From: an uncultured Pseudomonadota bacterium | GTDB lineage: Bacteria > Pseudomonadota > Gammaproteobacteria > Steroidobacterales > Woeseiaceae | DNA length: 64,000 nt | Assembly: GCA_963770585.1 (NCBI GenBank) | Contig: CAVYQH010000004.1 | Span: 48,453 to 112,452, forward strand | Reading direction: 5' to 3' | In this document: positions 10,114 through 43,910 of the stretch, piece by piece | How the letters are laid out: the number at the start of each line of letters is the position of its first letter | Numbering within the stretch: position 1 is the first letter of the stretch | The notes under the pieces: model-generated | The model's database searches: none | What the model was told of the DNA's origin: nothing | What the model saw: only the letters and a program-made list of their open reading frames with translations | Translations under genes and position numbers: made by a program

Positions 10114-10151
10114 TTGTTTGATTTGCGTCTCGAGAGCTGGCGAAACATTCA

Positions 10152-10871: not shown

Positions 10872-11031
10872 CGGGCTGATTTCCGACCTTGCTCAGCCCA
10901 GAACGGCTTCAACAAGATATGGTATTTTCTCTTGTGTCGGCACAGTGGAGTGCCTTACTCATGCGCGCTACCGGTACCAAGTATCGCTTGATTCGGGTTT
11001 GGCGGCGCATCGCTAGAGTGTTCGTTGACGC

Positions 11032-13022: not shown

Positions 13023-13103
13023 CGGTGTTTTGTTTTCCCTTCGTGAGCTGACTCATGAACACGACCGTCGAGTAAAGCTCCTCGGCGCGGGCGTTCTGAT
13101 CAA

Positions 13104-14276: not shown

Positions 14277-14305
14277 CCCGCCGTCAAGATGGCGTGCATT
14301 AGTGC

Positions 14306-15076: not shown

Positions 15077-15499
15077 AGGCCTGCCAGTTATTCCGTCCTT
15101 TTCGAGAAACGCGGGGCGCTACAAAATGGCCCACTGCTGAACCAAAGCTTTGCTTAAGAAGACCAAACTGGAGTAGTTTCCCTGCGGGGATTGACGATGG
15201 TTTGAGCGCGACGGGCGCCGCCAATAAGAATAGGTCTGGGTTGGCCAATGGTCTGAGCGTTGGTGGCCAAGACAAGAAAAAGGGGAACGCCAAATAAAGC
15301 GTTTGAAACTCCGTGTGATTTTCAAATCACGCGCACAGCTTGCGTGCTATTCGCGCAGTCCGTGAGGTTCGCGGGTTCTCGCTTACCCGCCGTGCTGTCC
15401 AAGGCGACCGGTCCGCGTTCACCGGCCGGCACCAACGTTGTTTCATACGTCGATCGGGGGCCGACCTTGGGGGCGGAGAAGTTCCAATTGGGGCGTCGC

Positions 15500-15751
15500 A
15501 TGAACGAGATCCGTACGTCGAATAGCGGTGCGCAAGTGCCTGGGCCGGAGTTCGCAGCGTGGTGGCGTGTCGCCCTGCTGTTGCTGTCGGGTGCAGCGGT
15601 AATCATTTCATTGATACCATCCTTCAAAGAAGCCATTGAGCTGCCACATACGTACAGAATGCAACAGAACAAACGCTCATGGCTGCGGTTTCAATCGGTC
15701 GATGCTGGTGACCGCAAATTTACCTACGTCGATTTCGCTACCGCAGCGTAA
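15500..15751 (+). CDS. hypothetical small membrane protein (weak call)
   Basis: An internal ATG of ORF 15260-15751 gives an 83-aa product with one hydrophobic helix (WWRVALLLLSGAAVIISLI). No recognisable family. Confidence 0.2.
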   Translation: MNEIRTSNSGAQVPGPEFAAWWRVALLLLSGAAVIISLIPSFKEAIELPHTYRMQQNKRSWLRFQSVDAGDRKFTYVDFATAA

Positions 15752-17741: not shown

Positions 17742-18124
17742 CGGACGGCGACCAAAGAGTCCTAGACCAAATGAGGCAAATGGATTCGACCTGAAAAGGT
17801 TTCGACTACGGGACTACGGCGCAGTTTCCGACGTCAATATCGTACTGATATGTTTACCGAACCTTTTCTCAAAAGCTTGTTATTTAAGTCGACAACCGCG
17901 GACGCTGATCTCACGGCGAGTGGGAGTTTCTTGAAGGGCAGTTTACCGGTGATACACAGGCCTTTGCGTTTACTTGGTTGGCATCGATGAGGCTGCTCGA
18001 TGAACTACAACTTCGAACGTACGCCCCAGGGCAAAATGTGCTTCGGCAGGGCGTCGACGGTAACCCTCGAGGATGGCAGTCGCCTCCGCAGAACCGGTAA
18101 TTGTCAGACGGCGTCCTTCTGCAT

Positions 18125-18892
18125 CTAAGGCCGACGCTTGCGTAAGAGCATAGAACCTTTTGATCCCAGCTTTGGCAAGTACATTGATGACAACACCTCA
18201 ACTCGCTTCCAAACCGGCAGCGCAAACCCAGGGAGAGCCGAGATAAAGTGACTGCTTAGGAGAAAGTACCCGTGGCTGGCCAGAACTTCGCAGTTACCTT
18301 CGATTGCCACCGTGGCAAGCTCATTGAATGAGAAGAGCGGAGGGTGTCCTGGCCTCGGTAGGGGAAAACCTGACGTTGCGAAATCAATAAGAACATAGCC
18401 TCCCGGTGCTACTACCCGCATTTTCTCTTTGACAACGTCAATAGCAGCCTGTTTTGTGTCCAACCTGTTAAGAACGCGGGTAGAAAAAACAAAGTCGAAC
18501 GCACCATCTTCGAACCCTGTGTCCTGGCCGCTTCGCACGACAAAAGATATGTTGTCGAGGCTTCTCGCCTTCGACTTGCCCTCCTCCAGCATGTATTCTG
18601 AGGGATCGAGAGCCGTGACATTGAAACCTTGCTTCGCGAGCTCGATAGCGAATCGAGCTGTGCCGGCGCCGATTTCAAGAATTCGTGCACCGGGCGCCAA
18701 ATAACTGACTGCGCGCTCGAGCTGCCGATCCTCAATCCAATGTATCAATCGACCTTGTGGAGTGGTGAAGCGGGCACGGTCGTAATTCCTTGCCTGAACT
18801 TCCGAATAGGCTGTCAACAAACCATCCTCATGTTCTACAGATCTCGTATTTAAAGTGGATCTCGATTCCGACGCCGGGCATGATGCTGTCAT
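18125..18892 (-). CDS. class I SAM-dependent methyltransferase
   Basis: Motif I ILEIGAGTARFAIELAKQG, post-I VTALDPSEYML, motif II FDFVFSTRVLNRL. Confidence 0.85.
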   Translation of the reverse strand: MTASCPASESRSTLNTRSVEHEDGLLTAYSEVQARNYDRARFTTPQGRLIHWIEDRQLERAVSYLAPGARILEIGAGTARFAIELAKQGFNVTALDPSEYMLEEGKSKARSLDNISFVVRSGQDTGFEDGAFDFVFSTRVLNRLDTKQAAIDVVKEKMRVVAPGGYVLIDFATSGFPLPRPGHPPLFSFNELATVAIEGNCEVLASHGYFLLSSHFISALPGFALPVWKRVEVLSSMYLPKLGSKGSMLLRKRRP

Positions 18893-19620
18893 TCGGTATG
18901 AGCTGCGCGTCGATTCCGAACAGCAGCAACAACGTCCTGAAGGTCAGGGTGTTCAATTGCGTCGAGCTGAGCCAGGGATATTTCACCGTCGTGTCCTTTC
19001 CGATACAGCTCATCGCGATATGCTTGCCACTTCCAATGCCTGGCAGAGATTCGAGCTGGTATTGCCGCTACTCCCGCAACTTTTGCCAAAGCCAATCGAT
19101 GTTTTCCAGTCATGAAGAGGAATTCGCCGTTAGCCCCAATGCTCAAACAGAACGGGTCCGTTGCGCGGTTCGGCCATGTAGGGATCGCAAACCCCTTAGT
19201 GGACAATGTCTCGAAAAGCGACCGATAACGTAATAGATCCGGCGGTTTCTGATGCGGTAGCGGCGATTCGGTGACAAAGAGTTTCCTGAACTGATCGACA
19301 AGCCTGCTGTGCTTCGGAGGGAGGCGCATCATACGCTCCCACTCCTTCCTTTGGATCAATCCACTGAATCGATATAGTTTCCGCCGGACGAATTTCGAAG
19401 ATTCAATTGAGTATTCGATAGTGTGGGGTGGCACGTAAACCGTCGCGATTGGGCAAGCCGGTTTGGCATATGCAAAGTAATGCACAACAAATAGTAGACA
19501 GGACTGGACATCGAAGACGGTAAGAACCAGCCACTTTAGTGCGGCGTTCAAGACACTATATATCTCACGAAGGTGGAGACTCGGGAGTCGGCGTCCCTGT
19601 TGTTGCTTAACGCGACTCAT
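18889..19620 (-). CDS. hypothetical protein with ParB/Srx-like motif
   Basis: Its stop overlaps the methyltransferase start (4-nt overlap). GEFLFMTGKHRLALAKVAGVAAIPARI resembles the ParB N-terminal/sulfiredoxin-fold GxHRxxAA..G...IP signature. Start placed at ATG 19620, because the longer ORF (to 19824) would overlap the capD-like start. Confidence 0.45.
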   Translation of the reverse strand: MSRVKQQQGRRLPSLHLREIYSVLNAALKWLVLTVFDVQSCLLFVVHYFAYAKPACPIATVYVPPHTIEYSIESSKFVRRKLYRFSGLIQRKEWERMMRLPPKHSRLVDQFRKLFVTESPLPHQKPPDLLRYRSLFETLSTKGFAIPTWPNRATDPFCLSIGANGEFLFMTGKHRLALAKVAGVAAIPARISARHWKWQAYRDELYRKGHDGEISLAQLDAIEHPDLQDVVAAVRNRRAAHTE

Positions 19621-19800
19621 ACATCCATGTTCCAGTCTAACCCACCCGGTCAATTTAGCGACGAGAGTTCTGCCTCCCGGCCCGCCATTTGTGCTAAGTT
19701 TCTGGTCCGTACGGATAACAAAAACAAGTGCCGATACCGGTATGACAAAAACAACAAATGGTAGCTTACATCCGCCGGCGAGAAGCCAAGGGAGGCCAGG

Positions 19801-21810
19801 ATGATGGACCATCCAGGTCAGCAAGATCCCCGATTTTCAAGGGAGCGAGCGCTCCGTATCTCGCTGATCCAGCTTCCGCGCCTTACCAAGCGGCTCATCA
19901 TGTTGGGATCCGACATTGCCGGTGTCCTGGGCTGCTTCGCGCTTTGCCTCTGGCTGAGCCTGATCATTCCCGTGTCGGTCGGCGACCTGGCGCTGCTCGC
20001 AACCGCGACACTCCTCGTGGCGCTGGCCCTGGCCCGGTATCTCGGCTTCTATCATTCCATCGTCCGCTACCTCGGCATCGGGCTGCTCACGGCGGCCGCG
20101 CGGGTAGCTGTCGGCGCTGCGATTGCACTGGCGCTATTTGCCTGGATGTCGGGCATGACCACGCAGCCAGGCCGCTTGGCCGTGGTCTACGCCGCGTATT
20201 GCGGCCTGTACCTCGTCAGCAGCCGCTACCTCGCCCAGTTCTTCCTGGTGCGGCGCTCGTTGGGCAAGAGCAAGGTCATAATCTACGGTGCCGGCGAGGC
20301 CGGTGCGCGGGTAGTACAGGCCATGCAGGGCGCCGCTTCGTACCGCCCGATTGCCTTCATCGACGACAAGCCGGCACTGCAGGGCATCCAGATCGACGGC
20401 TTGACGGTCTATCCGCGTTCCAGTTTGCCGTTCTTGATTAAAAAGTATGACGTCGCGCGCGTGCTGCTCGCGATCCCGAGCGCGTCGCGGCGGGAACGCC
20501 AGGACATCATCGCGGAACTCGAGCAATTGTCGGTGCATGTGCAGACCGTGCCGGATTTCGTCGACCTGATCACCGGCAAAGCACGCGTCGATGACATTCG
20601 CGACGTGGATGTCGAAGACCTGCTGAGCCGGCCGCCGGTGGCACCGAACGAGCATCTCATGGCAGCCACGTTGCTGAACAAGTCGGTCCTCGTGACCGGC
20701 GCCGGCGGTTCCATCGGCTCCGAGCTGTGCCGGCAGATCGTTCGGGTTGGTCCAAGGCGGCTCGTGCTGTTCGAGATTTCCGAGCCGGCGCTGTACGTAA
20801 TCGACCGGGATCTCCGCGCTCTGGCGGCCAAGATCGGCATGCAGTGCGAGATCGTGCCGCTGCTCGGGTCGGTGCAGGACGAACGTCGCGTCAACGAAGT
20901 GATGAGCAGTTTCCATATCGACACGGTGTATCACGCGGCGGCCTACAAGCACGTGCCCATCGTGGAGCAGAACATCATCGAGGGCGCCTGCAACAACGTG
21001 CTGGGCACGGTGACCACCGCGGCAGCGGCCATCGCCAACCGCGTCAAGACTTTTGTCCTGGTATCCACCGACAAGGCCGTCAGCCCCACGAACGTCATGG
21101 GCGCCACGAAACGCTTTGCCGAACAGATCCTGCAGTCGATGCAAAAGCCCTCGCACTCCACCTGCTTCTCCATGGTGCGCTTCGGCAACGTTCTGGAATC
21201 GTCCGGCTCGGTCGTGCCCCTGTTCCGCGAACAGATTCGGCACGGTGGCCCGGTCACGGTGACCCACCCGGAAATCATTCGCTATTTCATGACCATCCCC
21301 GAGGCGGCGCAGCTCGTCATCCAGGCCGGCGCCATGGCCCGCGGCGGCGACGTCTTCGTGCTGGACATGGGCGAGCCTGTGAAGATCAAGGACCTCGCCG
21401 CGCGCATGATCAATCTGACGGGACTCACGGTGCGCAACGCGGACAACCCGGACGGTGACATCGAGATCCAGTTCACGGGGCTCAGGCCCGCCGAAAAGCT
21501 CTACGAGGAGTTGCTGATCGGCGAGAACGTATCCGGCACCCGGCACCCGCGCATCATGCGGGCCGAAGAGGACTTCATACCGGAGGAGGCTTTAAAGCCC
21601 CTGCTCGGCGACCTCGTGCTGGCCGCCCACCAGCTCGATCGCGAACGCATGCGCAATATCCTGCGCGACACTGTGAAGGAATATCGGCCGACCAACGACA
21701 TCGGCGACCTGATCTGGGGCCAGCGCCGGACGCAGAAGGCGGGCGCCGAAGACAATGTCGTGGAACTCAAGACCGTCGCCAGGCCCGACCGGGGTTCTTC
21801 CGTAGCTTAG
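19801..21810 (+). CDS. membrane-bound UDP-HexNAc 4,6-dehydratase (CapD/WbpM/PglF family)
   Basis: Four N-terminal TM helices, IIYGAGEAG and VTGAGGSIGSEL Rossmann motifs, HAAAYKHVPIVE, VLVSTDKAV. 669 aa. Confidence 0.9.
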   Translation: MMDHPGQQDPRFSRERALRISLIQLPRLTKRLIMLGSDIAGVLGCFALCLWLSLIIPVSVGDLALLATATLLVALALARYLGFYHSIVRYLGIGLLTAAARVAVGAAIALALFAWMSGMTTQPGRLAVVYAAYCGLYLVSSRYLAQFFLVRRSLGKSKVIIYGAGEAGARVVQAMQGAASYRPIAFIDDKPALQGIQIDGLTVYPRSSLPFLIKKYDVARVLLAIPSASRRERQDIIAELEQLSVHVQTVPDFVDLITGKARVDDIRDVDVEDLLSRPPVAPNEHLMAATLLNKSVLVTGAGGSIGSELCRQIVRVGPRRLVLFEISEPALYVIDRDLRALAAKIGMQCEIVPLLGSVQDERRVNEVMSSFHIDTVYHAAAYKHVPIVEQNIIEGACNNVLGTVTTAAAAIANRVKTFVLVSTDKAVSPTNVMGATKRFAEQILQSMQKPSHSTCFSMVRFGNVLESSGSVVPLFREQIRHGGPVTVTHPEIIRYFMTIPEAAQLVIQAGAMARGGDVFVLDMGEPVKIKDLAARMINLTGLTVRNADNPDGDIEIQFTGLRPAEKLYEELLIGENVSGTRHPRIMRAEEDFIPEEALKPLLGDLVLAAHQLDRERMRNILRDTVKEYRPTNDIGDLIWGQRRTQKAGAEDNVVELKTVARPDRGSSVA

Positions 21811-23565: not shown

Positions 23566-23673
23566 CGGTCGTCCTCCCTAAGAGCAACTGTGACTTCCCT
23601 ACTTGGTAGTATATTCTACTACCCATCGTCCGAACAAGCTCACTCCCTAAGATCGATCCTCGGTCGAGCGCGC

Positions 23674-23876
23674 GTTGGAGCGCGCCATGCGCGCGACCAG
23701 GTCGCACCTGTGAGGCGCTCCAACTCAGTGACGTCGTGCCTGTTGGAGCGCGCCATGCGCGCGACCTTTCGCGTGAAAGCGGTCGCGCCTATGAGGCGCT
23801 CCAACAGCCTTGAAGGTCGCGGCCGAGGGGCGCTCCTGCGGGCGATGTTAGAGTCGCGCTTATGAGGCGCTCCAAC
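23674..23876. repeat. REP-like repeat block (6 copies)
   Basis: Units at 23674-97 (fwd), 23701-24 (rev), 23742-65 (fwd), 23782-805 (rev), 23816-39 (rev, degenerate) and 23853-76 (rev). Forward form GTTGGAGCGCGCCATGCGCGCGAC; reverse form GTCGCGCCTATGAGGCGCTCCAAC. Confidence 0.85.
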
Positions 23877-23887
23877 AGCAGGCATGA

Positions 23888-25564
23888 ATGCTCGCCCGCC
23901 ATTTCCTGGATCTGATCTGGCACGATGAGGCCCTGCGGCGCAGGGCGACCATCTGCGTCGCGCTCGCACTCGTCGCGGCCGGCAGCGAGATCGCCGTCGC
24001 GCTCGCTTTCCTCCCCATCCTGGCTTCGCTCGGCGTAGACGCCGGCGAGGAGTTGGGGAATTTCATCGACAAGTTGTCGCCGGCTGGCTGGCTGGTCCTG
24101 TTCGCCGCGGCTGCGTTCGTCCGCTCGTTCGTGAACTGGCAGTCCTCCGTCCAGGACGAGCGCGGCTTTCACGAGCTCACGGTCGCACTGCAAAGCCGGC
24201 TTTACCGGGCGCTTTCCCGCGCGCACTGGGACGCGGTACGCCGCATCTCGCCGCCAACGCTGACCAATGCGCTGCAAACGCAGGCGTACTCCGCGGGCGA
24301 CGGCTTCAGTTCCCTCGTGCTGATGACGACGGATGTCCTGCTGGTCATCGGCTACCTCATCTCGGCCGCTTTCGTCTTCCCCCTCGCAGTGCCGCTGGTG
24401 CTGTTGATGGTCGTCGTCATGTGGCGGCTCAACAAGGGCAGCTCCGGGCGGGTATACGAACATGCCGAGGATTTCTACGCGGCCCAGGAGGACCTCCACC
24501 AGCGCTACGAAGACTGGGTGGCGATCAGCCGCATTGCGTCGTTCGGCATGGATACGTCGAAACTCGCCAACCGCTTCGAGAACGATGCGCGCCAGGCGGC
24601 CGGCCATGCCGTGAAAATCTCCCGCTCCTTTGCCTTTACCCGGATCACGTACGACGCGGCCGCCGCCATCGCGATACTCGCCGGCGTGCCCATCGCCTGG
24701 AAGCTCGGAACACCACCGGCTTTGCTGGCCTTCGGCCTGGTGTTGCTCGTGCGGGTCCTGCCACGCATCGTCAGCATTCACTCCAACTACCAAGGCGTGA
24801 TTCGCTCCGTCGCGCCCGTACGCGCGATCACGGACCTTGCCGAACAGCTCGAACGCGACCCGGCGGTGCATGCGCCGACAACCGAGCGGCTAGCGTGGCA
24901 GTCGCTCGAACTCACCGACGTGGGAGTCGAGGACACGCTGCGCGACTCGGGCCGGCACTGGATACTGCACGACATCAGTCTCGAAGTGCGCCACGGCGAG
25001 TGGATCGCACTGAGCGGGCCGACCGGCGCCGGCAAGACGACTTTGGCCGACGTCATGCTGACGCTCGTGCGGCCCGATGCGGGGCATTTGCGCATCGACG
25101 GCCGCGACGTCGACGCCGAACTCGCGAGCCACTGGCGCAACCAGGCGGCCTACGTGCCGCAGGACGTCGTGCTGTTCGATGCATCGATCCGCGACAACCT
25201 GAAACTCTACGTGCCCGACGCGACCGACGCCGACCTCGAGGTGGCGCTCAGGCAATCGGCGGCCGAGTTCGTGTTCGAGCGCCTGCCGGAGGGGCTGGCT
25301 ACGCAGGCGGGCCCGGGCGGGCGCTGGCTATCCGGCGGCGAGCGCCAGCGGATCGGCATTGCACGCGCGCTGCTCAGGAAACCCGGCTTCCTCGTGCTCG
25401 ACGAGCCCACCGCCGCACTCGACTCGGCGACCCAAACGAATCTGATGCACGCACTCGCGGGCCTTGAGCAAACGATGAGCGTCGTGCTGATCACGCACCG
25501 GCACGAGCTTCTCGAACTCGCCGATCGCGTCATGAACATCGAGGACGGAACGATCAGCCGCTGA
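23888..25564 (+). CDS. ABC transporter, fused permease/ATPase (lasso-peptide exporter type)
   Basis: Six-TM N-domain. Walker A GPTGAGKTT, signature LSGGERQRIGIARAL, Walker B FLVLDEPTAALD. 558 aa, adjacent to lasso genes. Confidence 0.85.
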   Translation: MLARHFLDLIWHDEALRRRATICVALALVAAGSEIAVALAFLPILASLGVDAGEELGNFIDKLSPAGWLVLFAAAAFVRSFVNWQSSVQDERGFHELTVALQSRLYRALSRAHWDAVRRISPPTLTNALQTQAYSAGDGFSSLVLMTTDVLLVIGYLISAAFVFPLAVPLVLLMVVVMWRLNKGSSGRVYEHAEDFYAAQEDLHQRYEDWVAISRIASFGMDTSKLANRFENDARQAAGHAVKISRSFAFTRITYDAAAAIAILAGVPIAWKLGTPPALLAFGLVLLVRVLPRIVSIHSNYQGVIRSVAPVRAITDLAEQLERDPAVHAPTTERLAWQSLELTDVGVEDTLRDSGRHWILHDISLEVRHGEWIALSGPTGAGKTTLADVMLTLVRPDAGHLRIDGRDVDAELASHWRNQAAYVPQDVVLFDASIRDNLKLYVPDATDADLEVALRQSAAEFVFERLPEGLATQAGPGGRWLSGGERQRIGIARALLRKPGFLVLDEPTAALDSATQTNLMHALAGLEQTMSVVLITHRHELLELADRVMNIEDGTISR

Positions 25565-26021
25565 AGCGGTGGATCTCGGTATATCGGCCCAGGTGTTCGC
25601 CGCCGATCACCATCGCATCGCCGCAGGTCAGCCAGGCATGACCGGCCAGCGCGTCGTCCCCGGGCCGCTCGACGCCCAGGTGAATCGTCGGGAAGTGGCC
25701 GTAGCTTTTCAGCAGCGCTCGCGCCGCGATCGCCTTCGGCAGGCACGTCGAGCGCCAGGGCACATTGGCGGCGGCCGTGGTCACGGCGAACGCGATTCGC
25801 TTGAGCAGCTCGGGATCGTGATTGCCATCACCCTCTTTGCCGCCGTCCGACAAGCGGGCCGCAAGGCGTTCGAAAGGCATGGTCGAAAGCTGCACACGCG
25901 CAATAGCCAGTGCGGTGATCGCACGCAGGAACAGCCACTTGTCTGACGTGCGCAAGTCGCCGAAACGCCGCAGTTTCCTTTGCCAGTGCGAGGTCCGCAT
26001 GGCCGGATTATGCGCCCGCAA
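25554..26021 (-). CDS. lasso peptide biosynthesis B2 protein (transglutaminase-like Cys protease)
   Basis: WRSTCLPKAIAARALLKSYGHFPTIHLGV......LAGHAWLTCGD.VIGG shows the Cys and His of the catalytic triad in the usual B2 context. Alternative start at ATG 26000. Confidence 0.85.
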   Translation of the reverse strand: MRAHNPAMRTSHWQRKLRRFGDLRTSDKWLFLRAITALAIARVQLSTMPFERLAARLSDGGKEGDGNHDPELLKRIAFAVTTAAANVPWRSTCLPKAIAARALLKSYGHFPTIHLGVERPGDDALAGHAWLTCGDAMVIGGEHLGRYTEIHRFSG

Positions 26022-26035
26022 GGCATAATCCGGCC

Positions 26036-27179
26036 ATGAGTGAATCCCTCGACGAGCACTACGGGTATCTCGCCGATCGCGTGAAACTCGAGCGCTACCG
26101 GGCAGCGATCGAACGCCTCGTGCAGCCCGGGCACGTCGTGATGGACCTCGGTTGCGGCAGCGGGGTGTTGGGCCTGATGGCGTTGCGCGCAGGCGCGGGC
26201 AAAGTCCTGTTCGTCGACCAGAGCGCCATCATCGAGGTCGCGCGGCAGACGACTGCCCGGGCGGGCTTTGCCGGGCGTGCCGAGTTCTTCCTCGCGAACT
26301 CGTTCGAGCTCGACCTGCGAGAGCGCGCCGATATCATCGTTTGCGATCACGTCGGCTACTTCGGTTTCGACTACAGCATTCTCGCCCTGCTCGCCGATGC
26401 GCGGCAGCGTTTCCTGAAGCCCGGCGGCATCCTGGTACCCGCCGCCGTCGACCTCGCGCTCGCGCCGGTCGAGGCCGAAAGCGGCCGCGAACTCGTGGCG
26501 CGCTGGCGCAATGGCGCCGTGCCGGACGACTACGCCTGGGTCGGTGCATCGGCCGCCAATACGAAGCACGCCATCGAAGCAACGGCAGAGAACCTGCTTG
26601 CCGATGCGGCGACGCTTGCGACACTCGAACCCGGCGCGGGTGTCGCCGAATACTCTGAGCTGGCAGGCGGATTTCACGTGTACGCGCAGCGGCACCCTCG
26701 ACGGCCTGCTCGGCTGGTTCGACGCGCGGCTTTGCGACGACATTCGCATGAGCAATTCGCCGCTGTCGGCGGACAAGCTCGAGCGCCCGCAGGCGTTCCT
26801 GCCGCTGCTCGAAATGTACTCTGACCCCATTATTGTTCGCGAAGGGGAGCCGATTCGCGCCACGGTCATGGTGCGCCATGACGACCACATTCTTGCCTGG
26901 ACCGTCGAACTGCCGGAACAGGACCGGCGCTTTTCCCTGACGACGTTCAACGGCCTGTTGCTCGACGACGAGGCGCTCAAGCGCAGCCGGCCGGATCGCA
27001 TCGCCCGGCTCAACGAGCGCGGCCGGGCACAGCAGGTTGTGCTGTCCTACTGCGACGGGACGCGAACCGTCGCCGAAGTCGAGGCACTCGTTCGCAAGGA
27101 GCACCCGGACCTGTTCCCCTCGGCCCGGGCCGCCGAGAAGCTCGTAAGAAGCGTGCTGGCGTGGAGCACCGGCGAATGA
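26036..27179 (+). pseudogene. class I methyltransferase (PRMT-like layout) with C-terminal PqqD-like domain; one frame switch near 26650
   Basis: Frame 2: VVMDLGCGSGVLGLMALRAGAGKVLFVDQS.., ADIIVCDHVGYFG.., FLKPGGILVP. Frame 0 continues with TLSWQADFTCTRSGTLDGLLGWFDARL..NSPL... The tail LNERGRAQQVVLSYCDGTRTVAEVEALVRKEHPDLFPSARAAEKLVRSVLA resembles a PqqD/RRE domain. Confidence 0.65.
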
Positions 27180-28039
27180 CTTACCATTCGGTGGGCTACT
27201 CGGTGGCGCCCGATCGGCCGCAGCAACGCATAGCGACGAAGCCCTTTCACCGCTATACGCACCAGGACGGCACGGTCTGGACCGAGTTCTATCGCTCGGA
27301 ACAAGGCTACCTGTTGCGCTTTCCCGAGCTTGCCGACTTCGAGGTATCGGCGAGCGGCGACACGGTCATTGCCTACCCGGCCACCGGCACCGACGCGGCA
27401 ACGGTCGAGCATCTCTACATCAACCAGCTCGTGCCCCTCGCGTTGAGCCGCCAGGGTCGACCGGCTTTTCACGCGAGCGTCGTTACGGTGCCCGGCGGCG
27501 CTGTCGCCTTTCTCGGCAAGACCGGCATGGGCAAGTCCACGCTCGCGGCATCCTTCGCCCTCGAGGATGCGACGTTCCTGACCGACGACGCACTGCTGAT
27601 CGACGAAAGCAGCGGCATACGCGCGATGCCGAGCCACGCCTCGTTGCGCCTCTGGGAAGACAGCATCGAAGCGCTGATACCCGAAGACACGCCCAAGGCC
27701 GGGGCAATCAGTTACTCGAGCAAAGCGCGTTTACTCGCCGGCGACGCCTTGCGCTACACGAACGAGCCCGTGGCATTGCTCGCGGCGTTCGAACTCCAGT
27801 GGCAGGACATCGACGACATCAGGATCCAGCCGCTCGAAGGTTCCGAACGGCACATGGCCTGGATCGAAAACTCGTTCCTGCTCGACATCGAGGACAAGGA
27901 TCTATTGGCGCGGCATTTCGACTGGACGTACCGGGTCGCCGATCGCGTGCCGACGTTCCGGCTGGACTATCCGCGCGACTATGGCATGCTCGCCAGGGTT
28001 CGCGATGCCGTGCGTCGGCAAGTCGCGAAACCCGGATAA
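27161..28039 (+). CDS. HprK-related kinase (lasso-cluster type)
   Basis: AFHASVVTVPGGAVAFLGKTGMGKSTLAASFALEDATFLTDDALLID matches the HPr-kinase C-domain P-loop context (G.SG.GKST.A..L......L..DD). ATG 27176 (ATGA overlap with the upstream stop) is an alternative start. Confidence 0.75.
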   Translation: MEHRRMTYHSVGYSVAPDRPQQRIATKPFHRYTHQDGTVWTEFYRSEQGYLLRFPELADFEVSASGDTVIAYPATGTDAATVEHLYINQLVPLALSRQGRPAFHASVVTVPGGAVAFLGKTGMGKSTLAASFALEDATFLTDDALLIDESSGIRAMPSHASLRLWEDSIEALIPEDTPKAGAISYSSKARLLAGDALRYTNEPVALLAAFELQWQDIDDIRIQPLEGSERHMAWIENSFLLDIEDKDLLARHFDWTYRVADRVPTFRLDYPRDYGMLARVRDAVRRQVAKPG

Positions 28040-28072: not shown

Positions 28073-28357
28073 GTGAATCTCGATACCCGCCTTTCCGTAC
28101 CGCCGCAGGTCATGTCGCGCCCCGTCGGCGACGAGACCGTGCTGCTCGATCTCGCGAGCGGGATGTACTTCGGTCTCGACGGCGTCGGCAAGCGTATCTG
28201 GGAGTCCGTCTCCGGCGGCAGGAGCCTTGCCGAAACGGTGGATGCCATCGTCGCGGAGTACGACGTCGGCGAGGAACAGGCCCGGTGCGACGTGATCGAC
28301 TTCGCGCAGCGACTGGTCGAACGCGGCCTACTCGCTCAAAGACCGCCCGACAAGTAG
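28073..28357 (+). CDS. PqqD-family protein (lasso B1 / RiPP recognition element)
   Basis: 94 aa, GTG start. VGDETVLLDLASGMYFGLDGVGKRIWESVSGGRSLAETVDAIVAEYDV..EQARCDVIDFAQRLVERGLL has the canonical PqqD layout. Confidence 0.85.
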   Translation: MNLDTRLSVPPQVMSRPVGDETVLLDLASGMYFGLDGVGKRIWESVSGGRSLAETVDAIVAEYDVGEEQARCDVIDFAQRLVERGLLAQRPPDK

Positions 28358-29390
28358 ATCCGCAAACGCGTCGAGATCGGCCTTGCTGCGACGGCTCGCC
28401 GTTCGGCGGCCCCGCGCCGCGCGCAGCACGTCGCCAGGCGCGTCGTGCAGGAAGAGCGTAAAGCCGAGCAGGCGCGTCCAGCGGGCATTCGACGTGCGAC
28501 CCGGCAGGTCGTTTTGCAGCCAGTAGTCGAGCCAGGTTCGGCGCAAGCGCCCGGGCTCGAGGTCAGCCAGCATTTTCGGCAGCATCGCGGGAGCGTACCT
28601 TCCGGCAAGCAGGTCCACCCAGCGCAATGTCGCCCATGCGGCAACGCGCACGCCGTTCTCTTCGAGCAACGTCCGTACGCGATGCCAGTCGAACTGCTGG
28701 CCGCGCAAGCACTCGAGCAGATCGGCCACGCGATGCAAGCCCATGTTCCATCCCGCGAGGTGCTTGCCGAACGCGGGATGCACGAGGAGCGTGAACAGCG
28801 TGTCCTCGGGGCTTTGCATCCACATGTCGTGAAGCCGCCTGCGCCGCGCCAGCATCCCTTCGGTCGGGTCGGTGCCCAGCCGGCCTTCGCGCAACAAGCC
28901 CCAGTGCAGGTCGACGTTCGCATCGCTGCGTGTCAAGCACAAGCTCGCGGCTGATGCCTGCTTCATCGGCTACTGCGGCAAATCCCCGACCGACCAGGGC
29001 TTTCGCCGCGACGAATTTGTCTTCTGGCCGGACCAGGATGTCGAGGTCGAGGCACGCACGGACGGCCGGGTTCGCGTACCAAAGCATCCGGTTTGCAGCG
29101 CCCTTGAAGACGACGTGCTCGACTTCAGCGGCATCCAGGGCGGCACCGATCTCGCGTAGCGCCTTGTCCTGGGCGAGGAACATCGCCTCCGCCTGCATGC
29201 GCGACTCATGGAATTCCGAGCGCCCGGTACGCGCGTGCCACAGCGGCCCGAGGCCGTGGTCGACGACGAACGACACGAAGTCCCCGGAGCGTTCGTCGAG
29301 TACTGCTAACAGCGCGTCATCGGGTGCATCGACGTGCGCGGCCAGGAGCGCCGTTTGGTAATTATTGAGCCGTGGGTCGAGCCGTGGCAT
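28328..29390 (-). pseudogene. nucleotidyltransferase family protein (NTP_transf_5-like), one frame switch near 28940
   Basis: N-part (ORF 28563-29390): VVFKGAANRMLWYANPAVRACLDLDILVRPEDKFVAAKALVGRGF. The C-part continues in ORF 28328-28966 (..TRSDANVDLHWGLL.., TLLVHPAFGKHLAGW..). Confidence 0.7.
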
Positions 29391-29410
29391 GTGGTAATAG
29401 TAGCCGACTT

Positions 29411-31183
29411 ATGAGGGGCATCTGCGGCATCTTCAGCGCCGGCAACGCGACCGTCGACGAGGCGGACCTCGGCGCGACGGCGATCCGGCATGCGGAATCG
29501 GGTTGCAGCATCACCGCGGATGCTGCCCTGTATTACCGCGACGATCTGCTTTCGGCCCTGGGAACGCGGGACAATTCGCTCGACGACGCCGAACTGATCC
29601 TCGCCGCGTATCTTCGCTGGGGTGAGGAATGCGTCGAGCACCTGGAAGGGGATTTCGCGTTCGTCATCCACGACCCGCGCAAGCGGACATTGTTCTGCGC
29701 TCGCGATCCGTACGGCATGCGTCCGCTCTACTACCACTACGTTACGCCGGGCGAGTGTTTTGTCTTCGCCTCGGATGCGCGCGACGTGCTGTGCTACCCA
29801 CAGGTGCCGTTTGCGATCAACGAAGGGCGTATCGCCGACTTCATCGTCGAGGAACTCGAGTGGCTCGACCTCACGAGCACCTTCTACGAGGGCATCGATC
29901 GCCTGCCGCCGGCGCACAAGATCACGATCGATGCGGCGGGTCTGAAGATCGCCGAGTACCGGGCGCCGGCGTGCGGGCCGCTGCTGAACCTGGAAACGGA
30001 CGCAGACTACAACGAGGCTTTTCTCGACGTATTTTCGCGCGCCGTTTCCGAGCGGCAGCAGGTTCGGGGCAGCGAAGCCGGCTCGATGCTGAGCGGCGGC
30101 CTGGATTCGGGCTCGATCGTCGCCCTCGCGAAGAAACCGCTGCGCACCTACTCGCTCGCGAGGCGGCGCGATTCCGATTGCGCCGAGTCGCGCCGCATCT
30201 ACGCGACGCTCGACTTCCTGGGCCTGGAAGGTAAGCAGATCATCGCGGATGAGCCGGCCAGCCTGACGGAGGACCTCGGCGCCGATCTCGCGGAACCCTA
30301 CGACGGCCACTTCCTGTTCCTGAAGGCCATCTACGAAACGGCGAAGCGAGACGGGTTCAACGCCGTGCTCGACGGTTCCGCCGGTGATCTCGTGTTCAAC
30401 GAAGGCGCGTATGTCACCCGGCTCATGCGCCGTGGCCAGCTCGCGCAGGCCTGGCATGAGACCGTCGGCGAGCAGGCTTTCTGGGGCGGTTCGTCGGCTG
30501 CGCCCGCTTTTCTTCGATACTGCGCAAGCGCCTTCACACCGGGCTTGGTGAAGACGCTGCTCCGCGGACCCAGGCAGCGCAGGAACGAGCGAAGTCATGT
30601 CAAGGCATCCCTGATCAGTCCGGCTTTTGCGCAACACGTCGACATCGAGGCGCGCTTCGAGCGCATGCGCGAGACATTCTCCGGCCTCCAGTCAGGGGAT
30701 CCTGGCCTCGAGCGGGTTCGAAAGATCCGCCCAAACCTGACGGCCGGCCGTGAGCGCTACGGGCGCATTGCCGCAGCCGCAGGCATTGAGGCGCGCGATC
30801 CGTACACCGACCTGCGGGTCGTCGACTTCTGCTCGCGCCTTCCGGACGACCAGCTCGCGCGGGACGGCTGGCCCAAGTTCCTCCTGCGCAACGCAATGGA
30901 AGGCCGGCTGCCCGACGCCGTCCGCTGGGGCCGGGGCAAGCCGCATATCGGCGGGGTCTATAACGAGAATTTTCTCAAGCGGGAAAGATTGGCGGGTAGA
31001 CTGAATCTCGATGGCTTGCGTGCCGCGCTCGGAGCCTATGTCGATTCTGGGGCGCTGGGCCGTGCGTGGCATGAATTCGAGGCGGGCGGGGCGTGCGAAC
31101 CTGTCCATACAGCGTACATTTTGTCACTCTGGCTCGACCAGGCCGCCCGACGACCGATTGTTAATGATCGGGGGTTTGGCTAG
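29411..31183 (+). CDS. lasso peptide cyclase (asparagine synthetase-like, C protein)
   Basis: MRGICGIF N-terminus (Ntn-like). PP-loop region MLSGGLDSGSIV. About 590 aa. The precursor gene lies 81 nt downstream. Confidence 0.85.
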   Translation: MRGICGIFSAGNATVDEADLGATAIRHAESGCSITADAALYYRDDLLSALGTRDNSLDDAELILAAYLRWGEECVEHLEGDFAFVIHDPRKRTLFCARDPYGMRPLYYHYVTPGECFVFASDARDVLCYPQVPFAINEGRIADFIVEELEWLDLTSTFYEGIDRLPPAHKITIDAAGLKIAEYRAPACGPLLNLETDADYNEAFLDVFSRAVSERQQVRGSEAGSMLSGGLDSGSIVALAKKPLRTYSLARRRDSDCAESRRIYATLDFLGLEGKQIIADEPASLTEDLGADLAEPYDGHFLFLKAIYETAKRDGFNAVLDGSAGDLVFNEGAYVTRLMRRGQLAQAWHETVGEQAFWGGSSAAPAFLRYCASAFTPGLVKTLLRGPRQRRNERSHVKASLISPAFAQHVDIEARFERMRETFSGLQSGDPGLERVRKIRPNLTAGRERYGRIAAAAGIEARDPYTDLRVVDFCSRLPDDQLARDGWPKFLLRNAMEGRLPDAVRWGRGKPHIGGVYNENFLKRERLAGRLNLDGLRAALGAYVDSGALGRAWHEFEAGGACEPVHTAYILSLWLDQAARRPIVNDRGFG

Positions 31184-31264
31184 AGTAGGGGTATCCTCGC
31201 TCGATTGAGCACACGCAATGCGCTCGACTCTCGAAGAGCGACCTGCAGCGACCGTGGCATTCCG

Positions 31265-31561
31265 ATGAATAACACCAAGCAACATCCGCAAGAAGAACAC
31301 GGCTCGCCCGTCAAAGCGGCATACAAGAAGCCGAATTTGAAGGAGTTTGGGTCCGTCGGCATCCTGACCCAGGCGGGCACCGGAACCCTGACCGAGCTCA
31401 TGCTCAATATGATGTCGAGCATGGACCCGAATGCGCAGGAACTAGGGCCCCGTTCGAGCGCGCTGTTGGAGCGCCCCATGGGCGCGACTTCTTTACCCGG
31501 TAGACCCGTCGCGCCTATGAGGCGCTCCAACAGTTCCTGCGTAGCCTCGTCGCGCCTCTGA
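31265..31561 (+). CDS. lasso peptide precursor (3' end uncertain)
   Basis: MNNTKQHPQEEHGSPVKAAYKKPNLKEFGSVGILTQ|AGTGTLTELMLNMMSSMDPNAQ... The leader carries YKKPNLKEFGSVGILTQ, which is YxxPxLx3Gx5Tx. The predicted core starts at Ala1 with Glu8 as ring acceptor. As assembled, the ORF runs on through three REP units to 31561. Confidence 0.65.
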   Translation: MNNTKQHPQEEHGSPVKAAYKKPNLKEFGSVGILTQAGTGTLTELMLNMMSSMDPNAQELGPRSSALLERPMGATSLPGRPVAPMRRSNSSCVASSRL

Positions 31562-31572
31562 GGCGCTCCAAC
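31465..31572. repeat. REP-like repeats (3 copies)
   Basis: 31465-88 fwd (GTTGGAGCGCCCCATGGGCGCGAC), 31508-31 rev, 31549-72 rev. Confidence 0.85.
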
Positions 31573-31759
31573 AAATTCAGAAAATTTCACCGCCGGCATA
31601 AGGAATTTTCACCTGCCGCCGCGACATCCTCAGGGTCGAGCCCGCCCGTCTCGGACCCTAAGCAAATCAAAACGAGAAGTCGGGGTATTCGACGGAGCGG
31701 TTCCTGGATTCCTGCGCGATCGCAGGGAACCTACCTAAGAAGAACCGGGAGTACCGTCC

Positions 31760-33037
31760 ATGCGTAATCCGATACTACACAGCGCCAACCGCCGTTGGCC
31801 GACGCTGACCGCCCTGCTGGTCACGGCGTTGCCGCTCGGCTGGTCGCAAGCGATCCGAGCCGATGCCGTCACGGACTGGAGCGCCATCGCGCAGACCACG
31901 ATCGTGACCAACGCTTTACGACCGCCCTCGGGTTCCATCGTCGACGCGGCTTATGTGTTCGCCGCGATGTACGACGCGGTGAACGCGATCGATGGCCGCT
32001 ATACCCCGTTCGCGGTCGACGTGGATGCTTCGCCGCATGCTTCGCAGGACGCCGCCGCGGTGGCCGCCGCCCACCACGTCCTGAAGACCTTCTACCCGAC
32101 CCAACAGGCCTACCTCGATGCCTCCTATGCGAGCTCGATCGCTGTCATTCCGGCAGGCCGCGCCCGGGACAAGGGGATCGCCGTTGGCGTCGAGGCCGCC
32201 ACCGCTTTCCTCGCGCTGCGGGCCAACGACGGGCGCGACGCCATCGTGCCCTATGTTTTCGGTAGCGGCCCGGGCGTCTACCAGCTGACGCCAGGGGCGC
32301 CACCACCGCCGGCCTCGCCCGCGACCCCGTGGGTCGCGGTGATGAAGCCGTTCGCCCTGGAGCGCGCGTCCCAGTTCCGCGCCTACGGGCCTCCTGATCT
32401 CACGAGCGCCCGATGGGCTCGCGACTACAAGGAAGTGAAGGCGTACGGCGTGTTGAGCGGCTCGTCACGTACGGATGAGCAGACCGAGATCGGCCTCTTT
32501 TACGCGGAGCATCCCGGCGCCCAGCTCATGCGCAATTTCCGCAACTTTGCTGCCGCCCAGCGGATGAGCCTGGCGGATCGTGCCCGGCTCCTGGCGATAC
32601 TGCACATCAGCGCGGCCGACGCGCTCATCACCTGCTTCGATTCGAAGTACTTCTACAATTTCTGGCGTCCGGTGACCGCGATCGTAGCCGGCGACACGGA
32701 CGACAACGATGCGACCGAGGCGGACGGTGGCTGGATAGCGCTCGCCCCGACTCCGAATCATCCCGAGTATCCGGCGGCCCACGGCGCTGTCAGCACCGCG
32801 TATGCCGAGTCGCTGCGGCACTTTTTCGGCACCAAGAGAATGACGATCACTTTGGACAGCACCGTCACTCAAACGAGCCGCACCTTCCACAATACCGATG
32901 CCATCAGCGAGGAGATCATCCTCGCGCGTATCTATGGCGGCATGCACTACCGGACGTCCGGCGCGCACGGTGCGCAGATGGGTGAAAAAGTCGCGAACTG
33001 GGTCGCCAAGCATTACTTCAAGCCGGTGAAGCGGTAG
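31760..33037 (+). CDS. vanadium-dependent haloperoxidase / PAP2-superfamily protein, secreted
   Basis: Signal peptide. PAP2 motifs KYFYNFWRP (KxxxxxxRP), PEYPAAHG (PSGH-like), ARIYGGMHYRTS (SRxxxGxHxxxD-like). Confidence 0.8.
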   Translation: MRNPILHSANRRWPTLTALLVTALPLGWSQAIRADAVTDWSAIAQTTIVTNALRPPSGSIVDAAYVFAAMYDAVNAIDGRYTPFAVDVDASPHASQDAAAVAAAHHVLKTFYPTQQAYLDASYASSIAVIPAGRARDKGIAVGVEAATAFLALRANDGRDAIVPYVFGSGPGVYQLTPGAPPPPASPATPWVAVMKPFALERASQFRAYGPPDLTSARWARDYKEVKAYGVLSGSSRTDEQTEIGLFYAEHPGAQLMRNFRNFAAAQRMSLADRARLLAILHISAADALITCFDSKYFYNFWRPVTAIVAGDTDDNDATEADGGWIALAPTPNHPEYPAAHGAVSTAYAESLRHFFGTKRMTITLDSTVTQTSRTFHNTDAISEEIILARIYGGMHYRTSGAHGAQMGEKVANWVAKHYFKPVKR

Positions 33038-36252: not shown

Positions 36253-36268
36253 ATCGCAGGCATGACCC

Positions 36269-36332
36269 GTTGGAGCGCCCCATGGGCGCGACTTCGCGCG
36301 GCAGATCGGTCGCGCGCATGGCGCGCTCCAAC
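36269..36332. repeat. REP-like convergent pair
   Basis: 36269-92 fwd and 36309-32 rev (GTCGCGCGCATGGCGCGCTCCAAC), between convergent genes. Confidence 0.85.
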
Positions 36333-36353
36333 AGGAGGCGGCCGCGCCCGCCT

Positions 36354-38894: not shown

Positions 38895-39086
38895 GTTGGA
38901 GCGCGCCATGCGCGACCTTCACGAGTTGTTTGAGCACCCCACGGGCGCGACGAATCTAGCACACAGGGTCGCGCTTGTTGGAGCGCGCCATGCGCGCGAC
39001 CTTGCGGGTGAGACCGGTCGCGCCTATGAGGCGCTCCAACGGTGCTTCCGAGTCGCGTTCCGGTCGCGCCCGTGGGGCGCTCCAAC
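38895..39086. repeat. REP-like repeat block (5 copies plus partials)
   Basis: 38895-916 fwd (2 nt short), 38928-51 fwd (degenerate), 38977-39000 fwd, 39017-40 rev, 39063-86 rev. Confidence 0.85.
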
Positions 39087-39238
39087 AATAAGCCTTGCTT
39101 ACAGCAGCCGTAGGATTAACGTGACCAGCAGCAAGGCAACGACGATGCCGAGGCCGACAGCCGCCGGTTCGATGTCGTCGGGTGACTTATCGTCATGCAT
39201 GAATGCTCCCCTCTCTTGTACTTAGAGGCCGCATCGGC

Positions 39239-40666: not shown

Positions 40667-43600
40667 ACCGCCTCCGCTTCCGGCTCGCGCCGCGCCGCCT
40701 TGAGGCGCAGTACCGCCTTGCGCACCACGAGGTAGAACACCGGCGTCAGGAACAGACCGAAGAACGTGACGCCGATCATGCCGGAGAACACGGCGACGCC
40801 CATCGCGTGGCGCATCTCGGCGCCGGCGCCGCGTCGAGAACACCAGCGGCATCACGCCCATGATGAACGCGAGCGACGTCATCAGGATCGGACGCAGGCG
40901 CAGGCGGCAGGCCTCGAGCGCGGCCTCCACAGGTCGATGCGCCCGTGCTGCCTCGCGCGTCGCTGCGCGAACTCGACGATCAGGATCGCGTTCTTGCAGG
41001 CGAGGCCGACCAGCACGATGAGCCCGATCTGGGTGAAGATGTTGTTGTCGCCGCCGGTGAGCCACACGCCGGCGATGGCGAACAGCAGGCACATCGGCAC
41101 GATCAGGATGACGACCAGCGGCAGGCGTCCAGCTCTCGTACTGCGCCGCGAGCACGAGGAACACGAGCAGCACGCACAGCGGGAAGATCGTAGACCGCCG
41201 TGTTGCCGGCGAGGATCTGCTGGTAGGTGAGGTCGGTCCATTCGAAGCTCATGCCGTTCGGCAGCTCGCTCGCGGCGAGTCCTGCCATCAGGGCCTCGGC
41301 CTGGCCGGAGCTGTAGCCCGGCGCCGGCCCGCCGTTGATTTCGGCGCTCGAGATAGCCGTTGTAATGCGGCACGCGGTCCGGCCCGTGCGCTGTGCTCGA
41401 CCTTCACGAAGCGCGCCGAGCGGCACCATCTCGCCGTCGGCGTTGCGCATCTTGAGCTGCAGCGATGTCCTCCGGCTGCAGGCGAAAGTCCACGTCGGCC
41501 TGCGCGATGACCTGGTAGGTGCGGCCGAAGCGGTTGAAGTCGTTCACGTACAGCGAGCCGAGGTAGATCTGCATCGTCTCGAACAGGTCTGTCGAGGCGA
41601 CGCCCTGCGCCTTCGCCTTCTCGCGGTCGACCTCGACGTCGAGCTGCGGCACGTTCACCTGGAAACCGGAGAAGAGTCCGCGCGAGGCCGGGTGTCTGCC
41701 AGGCCTTTGCACGACGGTTCTGCGTCGCCTGGTAGAGCGCCGTCGTGGCCGAGCCCGCCGCGATCCTCGATCTGCAGCTTGAAGCCGCCGATCGGTGCCG
41801 AGGCCCATGACCGGCGGCGGCGGGAAGATCGCGACGAACGCGTCCTGGATCGCGCCGAACTGCTGGTTCAACGCGCCGGCGATGGCGCCGGCCGACAGCG
41901 TCTCGTCGCTGCCGCTCCGTCGAACGGCGTCGAGCGTCACGAACACGATGCCGGCGTTCGGCGCATTCACGAAACCATTGATCGACAGGCCGGGGAATGC
42001 GACCGCGTGCGCGACACCCGGCTGCTCGAGGACGATGTCGCCCATGCGCCGGATCACCGCGTCGGTGCGGTCGAGCGTCGCCGCTTCCGGCAGCTGCGCG
42101 AAGGCGACGAGGTACTGCTTGTCCTGCTGCGGGACGAAACCGGTCGGCACCTGTGTGAAACCGAGCCAGGTCAGCGCGATCAGGCCCGCGTACAGGATGA
42201 GCGCGATGCGCGCGTCGGCGCAGGCTCTTGCCGGTCGCCGCGGCGTAGCGTTCCGTCGCGCGGCCGAAGAAGCGGTTGAACGGCCGGAACAACCAGCCGA
42301 ACAGCACGGTCGATGCACGCGCTGCAGGCGGTCGGCGGCGCGTGCCGTGCTCCTGCAGCAGGAGCGCGGACAGGGCCGGCGACAGCGTCAGCGAGTTGAA
42401 CGCCGAGATGACCGTGCGAGATCGCGATCGTGAGCGCGAATTGCTTGTAGAACTGGCCGGTCAGGCCGCTGATGAACGCGGTCGGCACGAACACGGCGCA
42501 CAGCACGCAGCGCGGTGGCGATGATCGGCCCGGTGACCTCGCGCATGGCCTGCTTGGTCGCTTCGATCGGCTTGCAGCCCCTCGCGGATGTTGCGTTCGA
42601 CGTTCTCGACCACCACGATCGCATCGTCGACGACGATGCCGATCGCCAGCACGAGTGCCGAACAGCGACAGGGTGTTGAGGGTGAAGCCGAACAGGTGCA
42701 TGACCGCGAGCGTGCCGACGAGCGAGACCGGCACCGCGGCCAGCGGGATGATGCGACGCCCGCCAGGTCTGCAGGAACAGCACGACGACCAGGACGACGA
42801 GCAGGAGCGCCTCGGCGAGCGTCGTCACGACCGCCTTGATCGAGGAGCGCACGAAAGTCGTCGGGTCGTACACGATCGCGTAGTCGATGCCGGCCGGGAA
42901 CTCCTCTTTCAGCTCCTCCATGCGCGCGCGCACGGAGTCCGAGATATCGAGCGCGTTCGATCCCGGCCGCTGAAAGATGCCGATGCCGGCGGCCGGCTGG
43001 TTGTCGAGCAGCGAGCGCAGCGAGTAACTGCTTGCGCCGAGCTCGATGCGCGCGACGTCGCCCAGGCGCACGATCTGCCCGGTGTCACCGGTCTTCACGA
43101 CGATGCGCTCGAATTCCGCCTCGTCGATCAGGCGGCCCTGCGTGTCGATCAGGAGCTGGAACTGCGCCGAGGATGGCGAGGGCGGCGAACCGATCTGGCC
43201 GGCCGCGACCTGGATATTCTGCTCGCGGATGGCCTGGACGACTTCGCTCGCCGACAGGTTCAGCGCGGCGACTTTTTCGGGGTCGAGCCAGACGCGCATC
43301 GAGTACTCGCCGGCGCCGAACACCTGCGCGCTGCCGACGCCGTCGAGCCGCGCCAGTTCGTCACGGACGCGCAGCGTGGCGTAGTTCGACAGGTATAGCA
43401 TGTCGTAGCGCTGGTCGGGGGACACCAGGTGCACGACCATCGTGAGGTCCGGCGAGGACTTCTCGGTCACGACGCCGAGCTGCTGTACTTCAGTCGGTAG
43501 CTTCGGCAGCGTCTGCTGCACGCGGTTCTGCACCAGCACCTGCGCGCGGTCGAGGTCGGTGCCGAGGCCGAAGGTGACGGTCAGCGTCATCAGGCCGTCG

Positions 43601-43857
43601 GCGGTCGCGAGCGAGGACATGTACAGCATGTCCTCGACGCCGTTGATCGCCTGCTCGAGCGGCGAAGCCACCGTCTCGGCGACCACCTGCGGATTGGCGC
43701 CCGGGTAGGTGGCGCGCACGACGACGGTCGGCGGCACGACCTCGGGGTACTCGCTGATCGGCAGGAGCCTGAGCGACAGCGCGCCGCTGATGAAGATGAT
43801 CATCGACAGCACGGCGGCGAAGATCGGCCGGTTTACGAAGAATTGCGGGAAGTTCAT
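40663..43857 (-). pseudogene. HAE1-type RND inner-membrane transporter (AcrB/MexB-like), about 17-18 frame switches
   Basis: Conserved segments hop between ORF-track fragments: MNFPQFFVNRPIFA..LFLQTWRA | PVSLVGTLAVMHLFGFTLNTLSLFG | LAIGIVVDDAIVVVENVERNIREGL | KPIEATKQAMREVTGPIIATAL | VLCAVFVPTAFISGLTGQFYKQFALTIAIS | TVISAFNSLTLSPALSALLL.. and so on, down to GAGAEMRHAMGVAVFSGMIGVTFFGLFLTPVFYLVV. The start and the stop are in the same frame. Confidence 0.85.
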
Positions 43858-43910
43858 GGTCTTGTCCGGGGCTTGTCGGGCTTACAGGTTGTTAACGGAT
43901 ATCGGCCGTA

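Follow-up and report, generated by a model that had tools for sequence, protein, structure and literature searches.

The question raised by this locus is where its lasso-peptide precursor ends. The window (the whole stretch of 64,000 nucleotides that was analysed) contains an open reading frame (ORF) on the forward strand, 31265-31561, and its translation gave a protein of 98 aa, identical to the string quoted in an earlier reading made from the letters of the DNA, the sequence-only reading. According to that reading, the ORF has a textbook leader and then runs through REP DNA, giving an implausible core. Translation confirmed that the frame is open until a stop at 31559-31561, that REP DNA is translated, and that the core as assembled comprises 62 aa (98 minus 36).

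The precursor and its gene cluster

The leader peptide of 36 aa (31265-31372, forward strand) reads Y20-KK-P23-N-L25-KEF-G29-SVGIL-T35-Q36, which is an exact instance of Y-x2-P-x-L-x3-G-x5-T-x. The exact motif with Thr at -2, as claimed in the earlier reading, was confirmed by translation (Y20, P23, L25, G29 and T35). Tyr, Pro, Leu and Thr are located at positions -17, -14, -12 and -2, respectively, and residues at these positions have been reported as B1/B2 recognition elements of lasso leaders (PMC10368454). The Y, P and T of the motif were invariant in seven of seven precursors, and L25 was replaced by Val in one of them. The core starts with AGTGTLTE and carries Ala1 as a small first residue and Glu8 as an acidic residue (Asp/Glu) within positions 7-9, in agreement with the earlier assignment; the Ala1-Glu8 lactam is a prediction. 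Across the relatives, Glu8 was invariant and core residue 1 was A, S or G.

The precursor ORF starts 81 nt downstream of an Asn-synthetase-like lasso cyclase gene (C; 29372-31183, forward strand; NF033535, E 6.6e-95). Six further genes of the cluster lie upstream. These encode an ABC exporter (D; 23888-25564, forward strand), a B2 leader peptidase (25554-26021, reverse strand; NF033537, 88 bits against a cut-off of 33), a PRMT-like methyltransferase split over two frames (26036-27179, forward strand), an HPr-kinase-like lasso precursor kinase (K; 27161-28039, forward strand; weak TIGR04352 and PF07475 matches), a PqqD-type leader-recognition protein B1 (28073-28357, forward strand; PF05402, E 2.3e-19), and an NTP_transf_5 nucleotidyltransferase split over two frames (N; 28328-29390, reverse strand). 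The neighbours expected of a lasso precursor, namely the cyclase, the RRE (B1) and the B2 peptidase, all adjoin the ORF, which is gene A of a split-B lasso-peptide cluster. The leader motif by itself was not decisive for this assignment, because the expression matched twice in the six frames of the window. The decisive evidence was the position 81 nt past the cyclase, together with conservation in relatives. A six-frame search across the window found no second leader-bearing ORF or precursor.

No Shine-Dalgarno sequence was evident upstream of the precursor ATG. A scan of 31100-31800 for promoters and terminators gave no promoter-like site and two terminator-like matches, the relevant one being a hairpin inside the first REP unit (31471-31485).

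From the families involved, B1 would bind the leader and B2 would cleave after Gln-1, with recognition via Thr-2. The cyclase would close an isopeptide ring around the tail by joining the amine of Ala1 and the side chain of Glu8, and the ABC transporter would export the product. The leader-bearing linear peptide would be the substrate of the kinase and perhaps of the methyltransferase. More speculatively, the nucleotidyltransferase may decorate the phosphate, and the PRMT-like methyltransferase may be a further tailoring enzyme.

The surplus base at 31433 and the stop codon before the REP units

The window was aligned at the DNA level with six comparison loci drawn from four sources (GTDB genomes, ENA assemblies, JGI and Logan). 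In the alignment of these seven loci one extra G was present in the window only, at 31433 on the forward strand, and was absent from L001, L016, L017, L018, L019 and L020. The TAG at 31443-31445 (forward strand) was common to all seven. When G31433 was deleted, the gene (31265-31445, forward strand) comprised 59 codons plus TAG and encoded the 36-aa leader and a 23-aa core, AGTGTLTELMLNMMSSMDPNRRN (31373-31442, forward strand). One surplus G therefore shifts the frame, so that the stop is missed and a 98-aa product is read to 31561. Across the site the repaired frame reads AGG, AGA and AGG in the window, L001 and L016, respectively, all being synonymous Arg codons.

Reading in the +1 frame meets a TGA at 31410-31412 and then the TAG at 31443-31445; in the remaining frame the next stop is found only at 31501-31503. 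The sequence-only reading had placed a single-base frameshift hiding a 23-aa core within 31411-31442. This range was essentially right, with the TGA and the TAG bounding the +1 frame, and the hidden core was recovered by treating G31433 as surplus, with the TAG invariant in seven of seven loci. On a point of wording, the assembly holds one base too many; putting in a further base would lead to the frame stopping at 31501-31503. The alignment with precursors of related clusters that had been proposed as a check thus showed relatives without G31433 and with the same TAG.

The relatives were collected in several ways. GTDB species genomes were scanned with the cyclase, and two close syntenic loci were found in long-read soil MAGs, L001 (cyclase 89% identical; locus 91% identical to the window) and L002 (cyclase 75% identical). 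The precursor of L001 ends ...MVNMMSSMNPNRRN-TAG. When proteins were searched with the repaired peptide of 59 aa, four clusters with members of 59-62 aa were found, every one ending in RRN or RRV, and the contigs of these relatives were taken from ENA, JGI and Logan assemblies. The core of one cluster, P0001, equals the repaired window core, which is also identical to the core in a syntenic contig of 97% identity; L016 is syntenic with the window and has 97.1% DNA identity to it over 17.6 kb. A further Logan variant (P0006) ends ...NPMRRN. A second metagenome scan, with the precursor alignment as the query, gave only one distant relative, L021. Metagenome contigs were also searched with DNA patterns, exact or degenerate, that span the frameshift; this gave no matches and also missed the JGI locus L018, and the samples lie outside that collection.

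Lasso cores are usually roughly 13-30 aa long. The 62-aa core as assembled lies outside this range, the 23-aa core without G31433 lies inside it, and the cores of the relatives were 17-27 aa. The earlier view that a 62-aa core is implausible was borne out, as homologous precursors have 59-62 aa in total and none carries the extension. By comparison with these sequences, the ORF is a genuine lasso precursor gene whose real product very probably has 59 aa and ends at the TAG at 31443-31445, before the REP units. The calculated monoisotopic mass of the unmodified lasso of AGTGTLTELMLNMMSSMDPNRRN is 2521.155 Da, with [M+2H]2+ at 1261.585. The repaired 59-aa sequence had no exact entry in the public protein collection searched, and the 98-aa product was present there, in an entry derived from an NCBI/ENA contig; the artefact was therefore propagated into annotation.

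The surplus G is, in all likelihood, an error of an indel-prone long-read metagenome assembly. Private indels were assigned to the window or to L016 by using L001 as the outgroup. The window carried private insertions of 1 bp in the genes of the methyltransferase (26655), the nucleotidyltransferase (28936) and the precursor (31433), and all remaining coding indels in the cluster were multiples of three. Deletion of one base at each of these positions gave products of 380, 353 and 59 aa, respectively, with no other lesions. Relative to L016, there were 11 private 1-bp insertions in 40833-41413. The RND pump gene (ACR_tran; 40700-43900, reverse strand) is broken into at least six ORF pieces in different frames with successive profile coordinates, corresponding to at least five frameshifts, and this region is a local hotspot of assembly error. 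A DUF4838 gene (11032-12862, forward strand) is split over two frames (profile positions 8-199 and 215-317), probably as a frameshift artefact. The claim that the same type of error breaks other genes here was therefore upheld by the methyltransferase, the nucleotidyltransferase, the RND pump and the DUF4838 gene. In L016, the cluster contains eight or more private 1-bp insertions (polarised against L001), and they break its cyclase into pieces of 113 and 392 aa; a Logan contig with a precursor identical to that of L016 (62 aa) has an intact cyclase of 589 aa. Both assemblies show scattered one-base insertions typical of under-polished long-read assembly. Assembly error is the likeliest explanation because other genes in the window and the sister assembly carry private insertions too.

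It is improbable that G31433 is a real mutation of the strain and that the precursor, methyltransferase and nucleotidyltransferase are recent pseudogenes of a decaying cluster. This explanation draws on the three window frameshifts lying inside a cluster of about 7.5 kb, on the flanking ABC exporter and PAP2 genes being free of indels relative to the relatives, on the position of G31433 outside any homopolymer, unlike the classic context of nanopore errors, and on the 98-aa product in the deposited record. However, removal of one base from each of the three genes makes them full length, with no internal stops or deletions, the same class of insertion occurs 11 times in 600 bp of the RND pump and also in the DUF4838 gene, and L016 has the same pattern of artefacts, with its broken cyclase contradicted by an independent contig. 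As for the 98-aa protein being genuine, with an exceptionally long core of 62 aa partly recruited from REP DNA, the ORF is indeed open in the assembly and was included in the gene call of the record. The extension, however, is absent from every homologue and is a translation of palindromic REP units present in 21 copies in the window, so that this explanation is hardly credible.

The sequence-only reading had also offered an alternative, in which the core originally ended ...GPRSS, with a Ser terminus that would suit the kinase, and insertion of a REP removed the stop that followed. The published kinase-type precursors paeninodin, ThcoA, SyanA and pseudomycoidin do end in Ser (PMC8498205, PMC9266682), and the REP units are close to the end of the gene. 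Nevertheless, the GPRSS frame exists only through the private G, the TAG is found 17 nt upstream of the REP position in seven of seven loci, two of them free of REPs, and none of 11 family precursors has a Ser terminus. Loss of a stop to REP DNA is thus rejected. Loci L019 and L020 have no REP downstream of the precursor and are followed after 30 nt by a DUF218 gene, with the stop unchanged; the number of REP units varies among the remaining relatives in the seven-locus alignment. Because these two REP-free loci keep the same TAG, the REPs removed no stop, and they are lineage-specific intergenic insertions beginning 17 nt past the true stop.

With the precursor of 59 aa as the preferred reading, the public record is in error in giving a protein of 98 aa, and the correct product is the 59-aa lasso precursor. 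Genome mining with a length filter, or acceptance of the ORF at face value, would miss the precursor or mispredict its core and mass. Frameshifts in this window are to be read as assembly noise unless shown otherwise.

Three REP units follow the true stop, an array without assigned strand that starts 17 nt after the TAG. Unit 1 (31463-31497) is intergenic, unit 2 (31499-31533) is inverted relative to it, and unit 3 (31541-31573) is a direct copy of unit 2. Units 1 and 2 pair to form a hairpin with a folding energy of -74 kcal/mol (z = -5.9). The REP pattern occurred in 21 copies in the window, against 0 expected from shuffles. The units are short imperfect palindromes with many intergenic copies and an inverted array, as is characteristic of REPs. 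Like the REP/BIME elements of Proteobacteria, they are about 35 nt long, occur only between genes, and form both inverted and direct arrays directly after stop codons; the difference is a lineage-specific unit sequence. The hairpin directly after the stop probably protects the transcript, as a 3' mRNA stabiliser, or terminates it. The REP family (GTCGCGCC..GGCGCTCCAACA) brackets the lasso cluster on both sides, with copies at 23673-23877, 36268-36333, 38927-39087 and other sites in the window. Close relatives carry different numbers of copies, and short-read contigs break off within REPs.

Two further observations were made on the precursors of relatives. In L002 (L002:9790-9910), the cyclase is separated from the intact precursor by a second, truncated precursor-like ORF (..VAYNRPQLKDFGFVGMLTCGVA*), which may be a duplicate that has decayed or a further assembly error. 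The precursor of L016 (L016:10001-10189) has a 9-nt tandem duplication at the N-terminus of the leader (MNNTKNTKQ...). An independent Logan contig confirms this duplication, so that it is genuine variation, in a stretch of the leader that is not conserved.

The kinase and its probable acceptor residue

The window kinase has the motif H-x14-G-x2-G-x-G-K-S-x15-D-D at residues 104-143, with exactly the spacing of the catalytic motif described for BsfK and other lasso kinases (PMC10368454). The substrate of BsfK has a C-terminal Asp and is phosphorylated on core Ser3, a position at which Thr is also accepted; the BsfK cluster likewise has a nucleotidyltransferase (PMC10368454). Searches of PDB sequences with the window kinase and with the nucleotidyltransferase gave nothing informative. 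Among the 11 precursors of the present family, core residue 3 (31379-31381 in the window) was Thr in ten and Ser in one (L023), so that a Ser or Thr was found at core position 3 in all of them, as in BsfA. Gly2 and Glu8 of the core were invariant in the family. The Ile or Val at leader position -2 of the BsfA type was not found in the aligned precursors, all of which have Thr there.

Paeninodin, ThcoA, SyanA and pseudomycoidin have a common C-terminal Ser (PMC8498205, PMC9266682). The 11 family precursors end in N, V, P, A or C, and a C-terminal Ser acceptor of the paeninodin type was found in none of them. The suggestion that a Ser C-terminus would suit the kinase was therefore not supported, with Ser ending 0 of 11 precursors and BsfK acting on core residue 3 (PMC10368454). 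By analogy with BsfK, the HPr-kinase-like enzyme probably phosphorylates the invariant hydroxyl residue Thr3 of the core, not a C-terminal Ser. Thr3 would be the best candidate acceptor because of the BsfK precedent and the invariant Thr/Ser3, together with the lack of a terminal Ser in the family. The family adds evidence that lasso clusters bearing a kinase are not tied to a C-terminal Ser.

Among the closest described systems is that of Bradymonas sediminis FA350, the BsfA/BsfK/BsfN cluster (Duan et al. 2023, PMC10368454), which shares the split B1/B2, the cyclase, the ABC exporter, the kinase and the nucleotidyltransferase. The precursor shares with BsfA the YxxPxL at -17 to -12, the 8-membered ring (predicted here), the hydroxyl residue at core position 3 and a C-terminus other than Ser, and the kinase is likened to BsfK by the motif H...G..G.GKS...DD. 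The window precursor differs from BsfA in having Thr at -2 (Ile in BsfA) and a predicted Ala1-Glu8 ring (Gly1-Asp8 in BsfA), and its cluster has the PRMT-like methyltransferase in addition. Other phosphorylated lasso systems are PadeA/PadeK, ThcoK and SyanK (Zhu et al. 2016) and PsmK/PsmN (Zyubko et al. 2019), reviewed in PMC8498205 and PMC9266682. The paeninodin and pseudomycoidin types resemble the present cluster in a kinase acting on the linear precursor (as we infer here), in a nucleotidyltransferase as the second tailoring enzyme and in the split B, and the paeninodin core also begins with AG. However, a conserved C-terminal Ser acceptor is the defining feature of those families, while the family of the window ends in Asn, Val, Pro, Ala or Cys.

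At five Acidobacteriota loci (L003-L007), genes with the kinase motif adjoin lasso precursors. Most of these precursors have Gly at core position 3; they have neither a hydroxyl residue at that position nor a C-terminal Ser and carry a conserved Lys-Thr near the C-terminus, which may represent a third type of kinase acceptor site. Kinase acceptor sites differ between families, because the Acidobacteriota precursors mostly have Gly3.

The PRMT-like methyltransferase and the wider cassette

As a lasso precursor, the peptide is ordinary and of textbook type, and the unusual content of the cluster lies in its accessory enzymes and not in the 3' end of the precursor gene. The methyltransferase (26036-27179 in the window; L001:4689-5831) aligned to PRMT6 over the Rossmann domain (residues 7-149, E 3.5e-20), and its alignments to PRMT1, 2, 3 and 8 extended through the barrel to about residue 283. 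On these alignments it appears to be a clear type I PRMT homologue. The glutamates of the double-E loop of type I PRMTs bind the guanidinium group. In the present enzyme both of these positions are Asp, not Glu (CDH...FGFDY), and this was invariant across 120 members of the family. Compared with the type I enzymes PRMT1 and PRMT6, the protein thus has Asp in place of the double-E Glu, and about 90 aa at its C-terminus form an additional, conserved domain. An RRE-like nature of this C-terminal extension was considered and was unsupported, as BLASTP against B1 (PqqD) gave no similarity.

The methyltransferase family comprised at least 573 clusters at 90% identity in the protein collection, mostly of 376 aa. 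Three distant contexts with about 60% methyltransferase identity were inspected, L022:5947-13497, L023:1504-9379 and L024:5863-10256. L022 and L023 had the full order of exporter, B2, methyltransferase, kinase, B1, nucleotidyltransferase, cyclase and precursor, and L024 had the same order up to B1, where the contig ends. In the precursors of the distant contexts, x-G-[ST]-x4-E is conserved, as are a tail rich in Met and an Arg close to the C-terminus. No link between a lasso peptide and a PRMT-type enzyme was found in the literature searched, nor anything relevant on a cassette with an HprK-related kinase, and the combination of phosphorylation with PRMT-type methylation was absent from the lasso reviews PMC8498205 and PMC9266682 and from that literature. 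We tentatively propose, as a possibility, that the cluster represents a widespread, undescribed cassette of eight genes whose product would be phosphorylated and possibly further decorated on the ring residue Thr3, and methylated by the PRMT-type enzyme, perhaps on the conserved Arg of the tail. The findings point to a large cassette with a PRMT-like candidate tailoring enzyme.

The cassettes of L022, L023 and L024 were all located within exopolysaccharide or capsule loci (Wzz/Wzc, Wza, Wzi, glycosyltransferases and a sulfotransferase). The window cluster is likewise flanked by sugar-transferase and sulfotransferase genes (8381-21810). This recurring polysaccharide or capsule setting suggests a functional link to the cell surface.
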